From the IMG/VR virus record IMGVR_UViG_3300027970_000006: a DNA stretch of 64,000 nt; one strand, written 5' to 3'. The first letter of the stretch is position 1. Each line of letters starts with the position of its first letter. The DNA is from a virus. This document shows, in pieces, positions 36,041 to 40,513 of the stretch. The notes under the pieces were generated by a model that had not been told where the DNA came from, ran no database searches, and saw only the letters and a program-made list of their open reading frames with translations. The translations under genes and the position numbers were made by a program.

Positions 36041-36940
36041 ATGGATGAATTTGAATCTGTTGTTGAACTAATATCTGATTTTTTAGGTGAACCAAAAAAA
36101 GTTTATGAAAATAGATCTCAAGTATCTTGGGATTGTCCTGTTTGTGATGATGATAAACATAAAGGTAATTTAGAAGTTAACGTTGATAAGGCGGTTTATC
36201 ACTGCTGGTCGTGCGGAGATAGTGAGGGAACTCACGGAGCTTTAGGAAAATTATTTGATAAATACGGAAATAAAAAACAAAAAAAACTTTATCAAGTATT
36301 AAAACCTGAAACGGTAGTTAAACGAGAAAAACCAAAAAAACAACTTAAACTTCCCGAAGGATTTACCTTATTCAAAGATTCAAGTCCTGTTTATCCTGTT
36401 AGAAGGGCTGCCATAAATTACTTATATAATCGGGGAATTTCCGATTATATGATTGAAAAATATCAAATTGGGTTTTGTGATAAGGGAGATCATGCTGGAC
36501 GTATCGTGATTCCGTCTTATGATAAAAGTGGTGAGTTGAACTATTATATTGCAAGGAGTTGGAATCCAATGTCTCGAGCAAAATACCGTAATCCTGAGGT
36601 GGAAAAAGATAAGATCATCTTTTGGGAGAATCTTATTGATTGGAATAAAGATATCTTTTTGGTTGAAGGAGCGTTTGACGGATTGTTTGTAGAAAACTCA
36701 ATACCGATGTTAGGTAAACATATGTCAGAACTTTTATTTGAAACAATATACAAAAAGGCTAAAGGTGATGTTATTATATGTTTGGATTCTGACGCATGGC
36801 AAAATTCTGTTAAACTTTATCATGAGTTAAATGGTGGTGAAATGTGGGGTAGAATTAAATTAATAAAGTTACCCGATGAAAAGGATATTGCTGATCTGAG
36901 GGGTGAAATAAAAGATGAATATTATTTTATAATAAAATGA
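36041..36940 (+). CDS. DNA primase (Zn finger + TOPRIM)
   Basis: CPVC...HCWSC zinc ribbon, 'RIVIP', 'FLVEGAFD', 'ICLDSDA'. Confidence 0.9.
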   Translation: MDEFESVVELISDFLGEPKKVYENRSQVSWDCPVCDDDKHKGNLEVNVDKAVYHCWSCGDSEGTHGALGKLFDKYGNKKQKKLYQVLKPETVVKREKPKKQLKLPEGFTLFKDSSPVYPVRRAAINYLYNRGISDYMIEKYQIGFCDKGDHAGRIVIPSYDKSGELNYYIARSWNPMSRAKYRNPEVEKDKIIFWENLIDWNKDIFLVEGAFDGLFVENSIPMLGKHMSELLFETIYKKAKGDVIICLDSDAWQNSVKLYHELNGGEMWGRIKLIKLPDEKDIADLRGEIKDEYYFIIK

Positions 36941-37803
36941 AAATAGAAGAAACGGTATTAGACATTAGACGAATTTTAGATGAAAAAAGAAAAGAATTCC
37001 AATTAACTTTTGAAGAAGAAACTCATAAATACACTATGTTAAATTTAGATGGTGAATTAACTGACGATTGGCCTTCAGTGTCTAAAGTTATGAAGGTATT
37101 TTATGATGAATTCCCATCCGAAAAAAAAGCTTTTGAAATGTCTGGTGGAGACCCTGACAAAGCGGAAGAATTACTTACCGAATGGAGAGTTGCGGGAGAA
37201 TACTCCACTAATATTGGAAGTAGAGTTCACTTTTTATTGGAAAAACATTCATTAGAAATGTTTAACTATGATAAAACAATACGAGAGCCAATCTATAATT
37301 GTGATCCTTTACAGATAATCAAAAGTGATTCTATGGTTACCGCTGGAAAAAAATTTTTAGAAACTATGAAAGAGCGAGGGGCTCATTTGATTGATACTGA
37401 AATTGTTTTAGGACATCCTGAATTAGGTTATACGGGGCAAGGAGATACTGGATGGTTGATTGAAAATAAAAATAAAGATGGGTATGGTATAATAATTACC
37501 GATTATAAAACAAATAAAGAAAAAAACTTTATTACTCAAAGGTATACTAAACCAATGAGAAATCCTTTTGAATATTTACCAAATAATGCTTTAGGTCACT
37601 ATCACACACAGTTACCACTTTATGGTAAAGTATTATTAAAAATGTTGGAAGGTACAAAATATCAAGATATTAAAATTCTAGGTTGTATTATTGTTAGATT
37701 AACAGATGACAGGAAATTTATTGAGTATCGGGTTGAAAGAAAAACTATGAACACAATACTTGAAATGGAGATGAAAAAGTATTTGACTAAACTTAAAAAA
37801 TAA
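36937..37803 (+). CDS. PD-(D/E)XK exonuclease
   Basis: 'GSRVH..LE', 'TE', 'GQGD', 'ITDYKTN', 'QLPLY'. Confidence 0.8.
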   Translation: MKIEETVLDIRRILDEKRKEFQLTFEEETHKYTMLNLDGELTDDWPSVSKVMKVFYDEFPSEKKAFEMSGGDPDKAEELLTEWRVAGEYSTNIGSRVHFLLEKHSLEMFNYDKTIREPIYNCDPLQIIKSDSMVTAGKKFLETMKERGAHLIDTEIVLGHPELGYTGQGDTGWLIENKNKDGYGIIITDYKTNKEKNFITQRYTKPMRNPFEYLPNNALGHYHTQLPLYGKVLLKMLEGTKYQDIKILGCIIVRLTDDRKFIEYRVERKTMNTILEMEMKKYLTKLKK

Positions 37804-37811
37804 ACTATAAT
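37783..37811 (+). promoter_or_regulatory. sigma70-consensus promoter (TTGACT-N17-TATAAT)
   Basis: Near-perfect consensus 5 nt before ATG 37817; would read through the inserted cassette. Confidence 0.75.
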
Positions 37812-37848
37812 TTATTATGGAAACTACAACTACACCAATATGGGTCAC

Positions 37849-37981
37849 AACGGTTGGGTGTATGAAACGTAATGGATTAGAAACACTAAACTTTCAACAC
37901 AAAATGAACTATAATAGAAGTACAAACTTTAAATATACTACTGAACCCATTATGTTTTATACACGATGTTAGCATTAGTAC
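37849..37981 (-). other. attC-like recombination site (imperfect palindrome)
   Basis: GTGTATGAAACGTAATGG (37858-75) pairs with CCATTATGTTTTATACAC (37947-64): 16 Watson-Crick + 2 G-T; flanked by AAC and GTTAGCA. Confidence 0.7.
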
Positions 37982-38858
37982 GGATTAAAACCACAAATGC
38001 TCAATCGAAGAACGAAACTTTTTTCTTTTCTTTTTTTGTGCGGTGGGAAATATTAAAATAAAATTATGACAATAGATTTAAGATACGGAGATACAATAAA
38101 ACAAATGAAATTGATACCTGTTAAAAGTATTGACTTTATTTGCTGTGATTTACCTTACGGCTCAACTAAAAATAATTGGGATATTGTAATACCATTTGAA
38201 GAACTTTGGGAACAATACAAAAGGATAATTAAAGATGATGGTGCTATTGCTTTATTTGGAACAGGATTGTTTGCTTACAAATTAGCATTATCAAATGAGA
38301 AAATGTATAAGTACGAAATAATTTGGCATAAATCAAAAAGCGGAAGTTCATTTACTGCTAAATACAGACCTGTTCAAAAACACGAAAACATTTTGATATT
38401 TGGAAAGGGTAAAGTTATTTATAATCCACAACTTGAAGAAGGTGAACCTTATTATAGAAAACGAAAAGCGAACAAAGGAGATAAACCAAACAATCACAAA
38501 CTTGGTGTGATTTCTGAAAGTGAAACCACAAATGATGGTTTTAGGTATCCCTCAACCGTACAATTCTTTCAACAAAAATGGAGAAGGCAAGACCAATTAC
38601 ATAGTACACAAAAACCAGTTGAATTACTTGAATGGTTGGTAAACTCATACAGCAACGAGGGTAATACTATTTTAGACAATACTTTTGGAAGTTGTACTTG
38701 TGGAATTGCTTGTATAAATACCAACCGCAATTTTATTGGGATAGAAAATGACGAAAATCATTTTAATATTTCTTTAAAGAGGGTGGAAGAAAAAAGAAAA
38801 GAAAAAGATTTTAACGTAGTAACTTCATTCGGAGATGGAATGTAGTATTACTGCTAAC
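37852..38858 (-). mobile_element. solo integron-like gene cassette (attC-like site + DNA methyltransferase)
   Basis: AAC at both junctions (37849-51, 38856-58); long hairpin 37858-37964; GTTAGCA (37968) complementary to TGCTAAC (38852); excision restores an ORF. Confidence 0.75.
38066..38845 (+). CDS. DNA N6-adenine/N4-cytosine methyltransferase (beta class)
   Basis: 'ICCDLPYG', 'IIWHK', 'HENILIF', 'HSTQKPVEL', 'ILDNTFGS', 'RNFIGIE'. Confidence 0.9.
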   Translation: MTIDLRYGDTIKQMKLIPVKSIDFICCDLPYGSTKNNWDIVIPFEELWEQYKRIIKDDGAIALFGTGLFAYKLALSNEKMYKYEIIWHKSKSGSSFTAKYRPVQKHENILIFGKGKVIYNPQLEEGEPYYRKRKANKGDKPNNHKLGVISESETTNDGFRYPSTVQFFQQKWRRQDQLHSTQKPVELLEWLVNSYSNEGNTILDNTFGSCTCGIACINTNRNFIGIENDENHFNISLKRVEEKRKEKDFNVVTSFGDGM

Positions 38859-38912
38859 AACTAGTTGGGATCATATATCAACAATTAAAATAAACATAAA
38901 ATATATAACAAA

Positions 38913-39131
38913 ATGAGCGACGATATAATCAGACCACAAATTGATTTACGCAAACAACAAACAATTAAATGTGAAAAGTGTGAATCCAAATTCTTCAAAG
39001 AGGTAACTATGTTAAAAAAAGTTCCAAAATTATTAACAGGAAGTCACGAAGACACAATTGTTCCATTTCCTACATACATGTGTAATGAATGTGGACATGT
39101 TAATGGTGATTTTGAATTATTCATTGACTAA
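38913..39131 (+). CDS. zinc-ribbon protein
   Basis: CEKC...CNECGH. Confidence 0.75.
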   Translation: MSDDIIRPQIDLRKQQTIKCEKCESKFFKEVTMLKKVPKLLTGSHEDTIVPFPTYMCNECGHVNGDFELFID

Positions 39132-39268
39132 TGGAAATAGGTAAAATGACAATATCTCAGGCGACGCCTTACTTAAAAAGTATTGCATCAAGTTATGGTT
39201 TGAGATTAAACAGATCAAAAGAATTTAAGTTAGTAAGACTTATTTTGGCAAATTTATATAATCAATAA
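39131..39268 (+). CDS. small hypothetical protein (45 aa, not in ORF track)
   Basis: TAATG coupling; MEIGKMTISQATPYLKSIASSYGLRLNRSKEFKLVRLILANLYNQ. Confidence 0.6.
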   Translation: MEIGKMTISQATPYLKSIASSYGLRLNRSKEFKLVRLILANLYNQ

Positions 39269-39292
39269 TCAAATTAAATTAAATTAAAAAAA

Positions 39293-39493
39293 ATGGCAAA
39301 AAAATTAGGATGGTATGAAACTTACGTAACAATTTGTAAGTATACTACAAAGTTAACAGATGAACAAGCAAAACTTTTTGAAGAGGATGAAGAAAAGTTT
39401 TATAACGAAGTAGATTTTAGGGCGGATCAAGAATTAGAATGGGATAAAATCAAAAATGAAGAAGAATCCGATTTTCAAATAGAAGAAGAATAA
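39293..39493 (+). CDS. acidic hypothetical protein
   Basis: ORF with A-rich leader. Confidence 0.7.
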   Translation: MAKKLGWYETYVTICKYTTKLTDEQAKLFEEDEEKFYNEVDFRADQELEWDKIKNEEESDFQIEEE

Positions 39494-39494
39494 G

Positions 39495-39734
39495 ATGACA
39501 CATAAAGAATTTTTTGCGTGGTTAGAAGGTTATTTAACCGGTAAACTTGAAAATAAACAGATTGAAATTACGCCGATCGTTGAAAAAATGAATTTGGTTG
39601 TTGATGAAAAACCATCAGTGTCAATTAGACAATTTGATCAAATACCCGTTCCTGTTAACCCAATACCTAAATATGACCCAATATCACCATCTTGGGATAT
39701 TACATTTGAAAATAAACAACAATTAAACGATTAA
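39495..39734 (+). CDS. hypothetical protein
   Basis: 'MT..EF..WLEGY' start typical of small phage proteins. Confidence 0.7.
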   Translation: MTHKEFFAWLEGYLTGKLENKQIEITPIVEKMNLVVDEKPSVSIRQFDQIPVPVNPIPKYDPISPSWDITFENKQQLND

Positions 39735-39745
39735 AAAATATTAAA

Positions 39746-40513
39746 ATGGCAAATTTTATTTATTCACAAGTAACTATTGAACCTGAAGAGGCAATGGATA
39801 AAATCTGTAACATGTTTGACAACATGCCAAAGGCAGAATACGGACAAGAAACAAAAGTTATTGTTCAAACATTTTACACCGAAGATGAACTTAAAAAACC
39901 TTATAACAATGGTGAAACTGAATATCCAATTACAGATTCAGGTGTAAATCATGGGTGGCTTTATGATAATGTTGGAACTAAATGGATCACTGGAGGTGTT
40001 GACGATATTATTAAATTAGAAACTCCTTCTTATATTCCTGATGGATTTTTAATTAAACTTTACTCAATTTGTATTTCTGAATTTGAGGATGTTAGAATTA
40101 CCTGTAAATGGTATGATGAATTTGAAACTAATATTGGAACTGCAGTTGTTTGGAACGGAGTTTACACCGAAGATGAAGAAACTATTGAATCTGAAGGAAT
40201 GTTTGATCCGGGTTATGAAGTTACTGGCGATGAAGACATTCAGGATATTAAAGAATGGATTTTAGGTGAGATAAACGAAAATTCATATACTAAAGCAGAA
40301 GAGGTTGAAGAAATGGACGAAGAAAGATTAAGAGAATTATTTCAAGATTGGAAACAAGAGGGAAAGTGGGACCATATTACAGATCGTCAAGAATCAATGT
40401 ATTACTCTTGTGAAGAAGCGATTGAAACAGAAGATTTTGATTTCCCAATTTCAAAAGTTAAAAAAATTGCTAATAAAAAATATGAAATGGTTGAGAATTG
40501 TTATCCGTTTTAA
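39746..40513 (+). CDS. acidic hypothetical protein
   Basis: 255-aa ORF; contains 'W.YDNVGTKW'. Confidence 0.7.
   Translation: MANFIYSQVTIEPEEAMDKICNMFDNMPKAEYGQETKVIVQTFYTEDELKKPYNNGETEYPITDSGVNHGWLYDNVGTKWITGGVDDIIKLETPSYIPDGFLIKLYSICISEFEDVRITCKWYDEFETNIGTAVVWNGVYTEDEETIESEGMFDPGYEVTGDEDIQDIKEWILGEINENSYTKAEEVEEMDEERLRELFQDWKQEGKWDHITDRQESMYYSCEEAIETEDFDFPISKVKKIANKKYEMVENCYPF

Follow-up and report, generated by a model that had tools for sequence, protein, structure and literature searches.

How did a DNA methyltransferase gene come to stand in the middle of a 30-codon phage gene? The question is raised by virus record IMGVR_UViG_3300027970_000006, from which we analyzed one stretch of 64,000 nucleotides (nt; hereafter, the window), and concerns positions 37852–38858. 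An earlier interpretation made without database searches (the sequence-only reading) took this segment for an integron-like, attC-type cassette that had integrated at a non-att GTT site. We find that the segment, of 1,007 base pairs (bp), is a true insertion joined at AAC with a 3-nt ambiguity, and that it is probably a single integron-like mobile gene cassette, recombined site-specifically at AAC| and captured at a secondary AAC within the phage gene. The features of the locus are as follows:

37783–37811, + strand: sigma-70-type promoter, TTGACT (37783–37788), 17 nt and TATAAT (37806–37811), conserved in the related contig L124; putative function, predicted purely from the consensus
37817–37851, + strand: 5′ part of the split 30-codon open reading frame (ORF), METTTTPIWVT.., ending with the left AAC box (37849–37851); homologous ORFs are intact in the related contigs L124 and L125
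37852–37967, + strand: hairpin module with a 6-nt spacer (GGTTGG), an 18-bp stem (37858–37875 with 37947–37964) including two G·T pairs, a 71-nt loop and a 3-nt spacer (GAT); it folds, and the same module occurs elsewhere
37968–37981, + strand: GTT box and left inverted cassette end, GTTAGCATTAGTAC; homology to Flavobacterium phage mymlan6-1 starts about here, and the ends covary in 92 cassettes
37982–38065, + strand: conserved leader, ~95% identical to mymlan6-1, which pairs with the 3′ end of the coding sequence (CDS) in a cofold
38066–38845, + strand: cargo gene for an N6/N4 DNA methyltransferase of 259 amino acids (PF01555), with highly conserved gene ends and a divergent centre
38845–38858, + strand: right inverted end, GTATTACTGCTAAC, with its first G in the stop codon and the AAC box (38856–38858) at its end; homology to mymlan6-1 and to the viral locus L018 ends exactly at 38858
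38859–38916, + strand: 3′ part of the split ORF (..TSWDHISTIKINIKYITK*), whose TGA overlaps the ATG of the gene at 38913; the L125 match resumes at 38856

Direct reading of the window confirmed the coordinates given by the sequence-only reading for a unit bounded by AAC on both sides (37849–37851 and 38856–38858). In silico removal of 37852–38858 restores, as it had also stated, a 30-codon ORF behind the promoter, METTTTPIWVTTTSWDHISTIKINIKYITK*, with a TGA/ATG overlap with the next gene at 38913–38916. It had further called for an empty allele, which is present in relatives of the window's phage with the forecast breakpoints and the 30-codon ORF. Relatives of the 288-amino acid protein encoded upstream of the insertion occur on 12 viral contigs, and in two of these (L124 and L125) the protein is 88% identical to that of the window and is followed by the same promoter and then by an intact 30-codon ORF (in L124, MENSIEMIWVTTTSWDHELPFKININYIIK*) running uninterrupted into the next gene. 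The empty allele reads ...TGGGTTACAAC|AACAAGTTGGGA... (pattern ...ACAAC|AAC.AGTTGGG...). Because of this allele, and because blastn matches of both contigs to the window end at 37851 and resume at 38856, we identify 37852–38858 as the inserted segment; for the window's own phage, the empty allele would be expected to read ...GGGTCACAAC|AACTAGTTGGG.... A third contig (L123, 92% identity) has no small ORF, which is therefore dispensable. In L299, where a homologue of the flanking protein lies in a complete 310-kilobase (kb) phage, the region is not syntenic and a third empty site was not found.

The whole unit recurs in L018 and in a second locus, L118, at 91.4% identity (37846–38858), inside an array and between unrelated flanks, with the match stopping exactly at 38858. 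Only AAC (3 nt) is common to the target of insertion and the unit. There is some loose likeness between the target, ...TCACAAC|AACTAGTTGGG, and the junction of the unit itself, ...TGCTAAC|GGTTGGG, which may have made the target a pseudo-site. The sigma-70 consensus of the promoter at 37783–37811 is perfect. Bacteroidota are the hosts of phages related to this one by their cassettes, and promoters of these hosts usually differ from that consensus.

Is the unit one of a kind? A 16-mer from its left end matched in at least 120 viral contigs, in nearly all of which the inverted right end follows 161–1157 bp later. The ends common to this family read GTTAGCA.TAGTAC ... GTATTA.TGCTAAC, and 92 unique cassettes carry both. 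Across these cassettes, position 8 of the ends is occupied by G-C in 48, T-A in 31, C-G in 8 and A-T in 1, and is mismatched in 4; position 9 by T-A in 83 and C-G in 8; and position 13 by A-T in 89 and G-C in 3. Double changes are seen at positions 9, 13 and 14 too. At position 11, the sense strand has G facing T in every case. From this covariation it follows that both ends of one cassette pair together. All 75 cassettes examined for coding content (75/75) are filled by a single sense ORF on the strand that folds (see below), with the stop codon mostly 13 nt and less often 7 nt before the cassette end. Nearly all long cassettes carry PF01555 methyltransferases, and most shorter ones carry no known family. 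The search for the same ends with other cargo, which the sequence-only reading had proposed, was therefore successful (cassettes of 161–1157 bp, many with ORFs of no known family), and its suggestion of cassette-based gene acquisition in Bacteroidota phages is backed by a large cassette family in other phages.

Within the window, both predicted pairings were confirmed where the sequence-only reading had placed them. The stem arms (37858–37875 and 37947–37964) form 18 pairs and appear in both DNA and RNA minimum-energy folds (z about −2), and the 14-mer GTTAGCATTAGTAC is complementary to the far end of the unit, GTATTACTGCTAAC, at 12 of 14 positions. Its statement that both mismatches are G-T on the + strand holds for the hairpin stem, in which both non-Watson–Crick pairs are of this kind, and not for the 14-mer, in which the exceptions are T·C at position 8 and G·T at position 11. 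The window cassette is among only 4 of the 92 with a mismatched position-8 pair (37975/38851), in that its left end is of the T type and its right end of the C type; a chimeric origin, or decay after the unit became stranded, may account for this. There is only one such site in the 64-kb window, and the 14-mer pattern (up to two mismatches) is not significant in the window taken by itself (2 matches versus 1.0 expected), so the significance of the unit comes from the comparisons and not from a pattern count. A self-splicing intron was rejected by an Rfam scan of 36500–40500 (E up to 10), which returned chance-level matches only and no intron or known RNA.

Inverted ends of 14 bp, conserved over many cargos, could also be recognized by a DDE transposase; the unit would then be a terminal-inverted-repeat transposon or miniature inverted-repeat transposable element carrying a passenger gene. 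We regard this as extremely improbable: the mobile unit takes in 40–120 nt beyond the left repeat, a protein binding each end separately would not require the ends to covary, and no transposase family recurs near the cassettes. In addition, AAC lies within the element's own inverted end in every member and therefore need not be a target duplication.

Two further observations concern the cassette loci. In L018 (minus strand, ~4790–4733) and L118, a 59-bp mini-cassette without an ORF, GTTATGTTT...AAACATAAC, has its own internal hairpin and is flanked by a hairpin module on either side; the copy of the window unit with 91% identity follows shortly downstream. Genes for SegE-like GIY-YIG endonucleases are found a few kb from cassettes at about ten loci (L016, L037, L040, L070, L071, L087, L100, L106, L114 and L119), and a 119-amino acid cassette cargo in L014 itself matches GIY-YIG.

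What, then, is the recombination site, and which unit moves? Upstream of 67 of the 78 distinct left ends we found a common layout: ...(A/C)TAAC|, a 5-nt spacer (G[GT]TTn), stem, loop, stem, 1–3 nt and GTTAGCA. The 56 unique hairpin modules have stems of 10–22 bp, with 4–6 canonical pair types per stem level. G·T pairs, in which the 5′ arm supplies the G, are frequent and T·G pairs are rare, which indicates that the + (sense) strand is selected to fold, the strand named by the sequence-only reading. An RNAalifold consensus of the ~80-nt module class contains 15 pairs, eight of them with compensatory changes; this result is confined to that class, as the MAFFT alignment of the short class was out of register and gave no structure. 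Short modules have a conserved loop, CGTTTTAATG. No conserved extrahelical bases were found in the 56 modules (most stems are continuous, and bulges are present but not conserved), and no promoter consensus was recognized in them.

The window's type of hairpin, predicted to occur at other loci, was found at eight (L004, L018, L032, L041, L047, L080, L113 and L118), where homology begins each time directly after ...AAC and the left flanks are unrelated. Near-identical cassettes in different contexts (L001/L021, L016-70-71/L087, L093/L114, L055/L067 and L024/L078) share the cassette together with its upstream hairpin, such that homology runs from AAC| to ...TAAC| with 0–1 nt of further match. 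Older cassette pairs share only the end-to-end sequence and differ in their hairpins, so hairpin and cassette can also separate. The sites have the structural hallmarks of attC, namely an imperfect palindrome with outer (R) and inner (L) helices, AAC/GTT cores and structure conserved over sequence. In agreement with a G|TT (AA|C) crossover, the junctions lie, to within the 3 nt of AAC, at this core both in the window versus L124/L125 and in the five near-identical pairs.

IS200/IS605 elements likewise have a strand-specific hairpin and insert 3′ of a fixed, short target that is not duplicated. By such a 'peel and paste' route, an HUH (Y1) transposase acting in trans would recognize the hairpin, which does lie near the left end and folds in a strand-specific way, and would insert the unit 3′ of the AAC trinucleotide without target duplication. 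This explanation is highly unlikely, given that the phage units have one hairpin each and not one per end, that they have no linked HUH transposase, and that the enzyme co-occurring with arrays is a tyrosine recombinase. Y1_Tnp (PF01797) was found in one of five cassette-bearing records, there at the contig end. The complete 78-kb phage behind L044 (G013), which has cassettes and the recombinase, carries an IS200-type Y1 transposase fragment at its very genome end (77895–78188).

Which enzyme could join such units? Five cassette loci encode a tyrosine recombinase of 265–281 amino acids with domains PF00589 and PF13495. Among NCBIfam models, those for XerA/integron integrase, XerC and XerD fit it best, every one scoring under its cut-off (for TIGR02249, 145–158 bits against a cut-off of 265), and its best solved relative is XerA-like (4a8e). 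Aligned to VchIntIA (2A3V), it shows 32 residues in place of the 80 present in IntI (about 48 amino acids fewer), and we therefore conclude that the IntI-specific insert is missing. The sequence-only reading had proposed a scan for an IntI-like tyrosine recombinase; the scan did yield a tyrosine recombinase tied to arrays in other phages, and the enzyme is Xer-like without the IntI insert.

By profile search, this Xer-like recombinase is present on 145 viral contigs, many of them 100–349 kb long. Of the strong AAC-hairpin-GTT sites counted in the 46 loci whose flanks are complete, 182 are located upstream of the gene on the same strand and only five elsewhere, and at least two strong upstream sites are found in 40 of the 46. 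Sites were called strong at a stem of at least 13 bp; a 9-bp threshold is noisy, with shuffled controls reaching ~20–40% of real counts. A conserved (A/C)TAAC|TATTATATATA marks the end of the last cassette and lies 36–52 nt before the recombinase ATG in most loci. A platform, that is, a co-oriented array ending at TAAC|TATTATATATA beside a recombinase gene, was found in 40 of 46 other viral loci and not in the window, which holds a solo unit without a recombinase. In L041, a methyltransferase cassette of the window type sits directly on the TAAC|TATTATATATA site. Viewed on the opposite strand, the layout is that of an integron, with the integrase first, the primary site next and after it the cassettes, each with its own site behind it.

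Homologues of the recombinase were also found on at least 557 bacterial stretches, mostly from Bacteroidota, with a weak excess of strong sites nearby. Those in L219–L298 (40–57% identity, with one contig at 76%) come overwhelmingly from Bacteroidota and Ignavibacteria/Chlorobi genomes, and strong hairpin sites lie close to the bacterial gene in only a few loci (for example, L220 from Polaribacter, as well as L221 and L290).

The likeness to integrons is extensive. Both have single-ORF cassettes whose ends are complementary within a cassette, forked-hairpin sites with AAC/GTT cores and covarying stems that join at the core, arrays that dock at a primary site next to the gene for a tyrosine recombinase, and occasional insertion at secondary GTT/AAC sites. 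However, the phage recombinase is Xer-like and short, without the IntI insert, and its gene lies downstream of the array and co-directional with it. The phage cassette ORFs lie on the folding ('bottom') strand with the site before the gene, and not on the top strand with a 3′ attC; the sequence-only reading had noted this antisense polarity, and it holds in all of the 75 cassettes. Other differences are an outer helix of 14 bp instead of 7, the lack of conserved extrahelical bases, and carriage by phages, including virulent and jumbo ones.

A recombinase of the Xer family also acts on a forked hairpin of one DNA strand, as proposed here, in integrative mobile elements exploiting Xer (IMEX) of the CTX-phi type, but these integrate whole phage genomes at chromosomal dif and not single-gene cassettes in arrays. 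Closer precedent comes from Qi et al. (2023), who described integrase-less attC clusters (CALIN) in phages, including Polaribacter phage P12002L with two methyltransferases (PMC9892861). Its P12002L_attC1 (TGCTAAC...CGTTTTAATG...GTTAGGC) is a member of the window's site family and lies between two methyltransferase cassettes (L002:3625–3680). That study used the canonical orientation and reported two sites, no recombinase and no family (PMC9892861), whereas the window has a documented empty allele and, with one site in 64 kb, falls outside a CALIN (at least two attC close together).

Could the unit be an ordinary attC cassette from a bacterial integron, moved by a true IntI? The AAC/GTT cores and R-L-L-R layout would fit, some family sites have the classical core GTTAGGC, and P12002L_attC1 was called an attC by HattCI, although not by Infernal (PMC9892861). 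We nevertheless hold this origin to be very improbable. The linked recombinase is ~48 amino acids short at the IntI-specific insert and below the TIGR02249 cut-off, ORF polarity is reversed relative to integron cassettes, no bulged bases are conserved, P12002L_attC1 did not recombine with IntI1, and complete integrons are very rare in Bacteroidetes (PMC9024848). Of the attC-type cassette at a non-att GTT site, what stands is an integron-like unit at a secondary AAC; it does not belong to integrons proper, in view of the recombinase without the IntI insert, the absence of conserved extrahelical bases and the failure of a family site with IntI1. Our results support an element that functions like an integron cassette, yet outside integrons proper.

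The cargo itself is a full-length methyltransferase (PF01555 N6_N4_Mtase, residues 22–236, E = 3e-28, 99.7 bits versus a cut-off of 26.7). Flavobacterium phage mymlan6-1, a 38.5-kb siphovirus, has exactly 37967–38858 in common with the window, at ~97% identity in the ends and ~65% in the gene centre. The same inverted ends enclose two methyltransferases of this phage. The P12002L methyltransferase is ~70% identical to that of the window at the DNA level. Cofolding revealed nested long-range inverted repeats within the cassette (38014–38037 with 38789–38812, and 38047–38061 with 38761–38775), in which the 3′ end of the methyltransferase CDS, rich in purines, is the pairing partner of the pyrimidine-rich leader and of the ribosome-binding region. 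In P12002L, both pairing partners are altered together (CTTTTC to CTTC and GAAAAG to GAAG). This pairing could possibly serve translational control or help to bring the cassette ends together.

These features raise the question of whether the hairpins act in RNA. In T4-type phages, small promoter early stem-loops (PeSLs) lie between accessory genes of large phages and have been proposed to promote single-gene movement with circular intermediates (PMC2839356, PMC4122927); such cassettes are the nearest non-integron analogue. By this analogy, the hairpins and ends would be a terminator, promoter, processing site or 5′–3′ panhandle of a regulatory cassette, and during co-infection the genes flanked by them would be exchanged through homologous or illegitimate recombination, with no dedicated recombinase. 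An ORF that lies without exception on the folding strand, G·T (G·U) pairs on the sense strand and the leader pairing with its correlated changes in P12002L are all as this would predict. So are the older cassette pairs with different hairpins, as recombination within conserved ends would yield them, and the precedent extends to mini-circles (PMC2839356, PMC4122927). PeSLs, however, use homology between copies, whereas the units described here are joined at one constant trinucleotide: the target has just AAC in common with the unit, and homology therefore cannot explain the join. Every left boundary falls at the same nucleotide after AAC beside unrelated flanks, the arrays are tied to a recombinase gene (182 sites versus 5), and the hairpin modules have no recognized promoter consensus. 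On balance, we judge this explanation unlikely; an RNA role of the hairpins and of the leader pairing is compatible with a site-specifically recombined cassette.

Several points weigh against the interpretation of the unit as a recombinase-joined cassette. Neither a circle junction nor a recombination product was observed, and the sense-strand G·T wobbles and the leader pairing would also fit a role at the RNA level. TATTATATATA could be conserved simply as the promoter of the recombinase gene. P12002L_attC1 was the one of six sites without IntI1 recombinants (PMC9892861), a result that tests another enzyme than the phage recombinase. As the sequence-only reading had noted for an integrase, no recombinase of this family was found in the 64-kb window, and no tyrosine recombinase was found in five partial contigs of the window's relatives or in the complete cassette-bearing phages mymlan6-1, P12002L and G012.

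Where, then, could the enzyme come from? The relatives' contigs are 18–59% complete by CheckV, implying a genome of ~290 kb, and the genes neighbouring the insertion are of replication type (a primase-like gene and an SbcD-like phosphoesterase). Because a 49–54% homologue of the window's flanking protein is encoded by two complete platform-bearing phages (288 and 310 kb), a recombinase elsewhere in the genome of the window's phage is plausible. The three complete cassette-bearing phages without a tyrosine recombinase make action in trans necessary in some phages, if their cassettes are still active. In the complete 288-kb phage (G014, 130688–132511; L300/L301), the homologue of the flanking protein is split by ~320 extra residues within a single 654-amino acid frame, possibly an intein or a domain insertion.

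A mechanism can be proposed from these comparisons. The mobile unit would consist of a 5′ recombination site (5–6-nt spacer, hairpin, 1–3-nt spacer and GTT box), one sense ORF and the complementary AAC box. In a circular unit, or in a folded single + strand, the ends would pair into an outer helix of ~14 bp beside the hairpin, giving an attC-like forked structure. With the folded + strand as its likely substrate, a tyrosine recombinase, presumably the Xer-like enzyme from the phage's own genome or a co-infecting phage, or else a host Xer enzyme, would cut and rejoin at AAC| (G|TT on the other strand). The putative circular intermediate would have the junction ...CTGCTAAC|GGTTGGGTG..., that is, ...GTATTACTGCTAAC|GGTTGGGTGTATG.... 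Such units would usually dock at the primary site ...TAAC|TATTATATATA, just upstream of the short Xer-like recombinase gene, and repeated docking would build the arrays. In the window, the unit would instead have been joined to a secondary AAC in the 30-codon gene, splitting it, and the phage would have gained an extra orphan DNA methyltransferase, presumably protecting its DNA from host restriction.

Full-text literature searching found no description of a recombinase-linked phage system of reverse polarity, and this widespread integron-like system of Bacteroidota-type phages (those with Bacteroidota hosts, or relatives of such phages) has so far been published only as fragments. With some reserve, we favour the wider view that Bacteroidota phages, from 38-kb siphoviruses to ~300-kb jumbo phages, share their own gene exchange parallel to integrons, in which a Xer-like recombinase without the IntI domain acts on a folded sense strand and mostly anti-restriction methyltransferase cassettes hop in trans, even into genes. 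Integrons have been regarded as a bacterial device dependent on the special IntI domain; our findings point to an analogous, phage-borne cassette system with a plain Xer-like recombinase and mirror-image gene polarity. A filled and an empty allele that differ by exactly one unit at a non-primary site are the cleanest non-experimental evidence of movement. The need for the IntI insert in folded-strand recombination becomes testable, and the compact sites and enzymes could be tried as tools in Bacteroidota. Such a system would explain how single accessory genes, for example orphan methyltransferases, are traded among unrelated phages.

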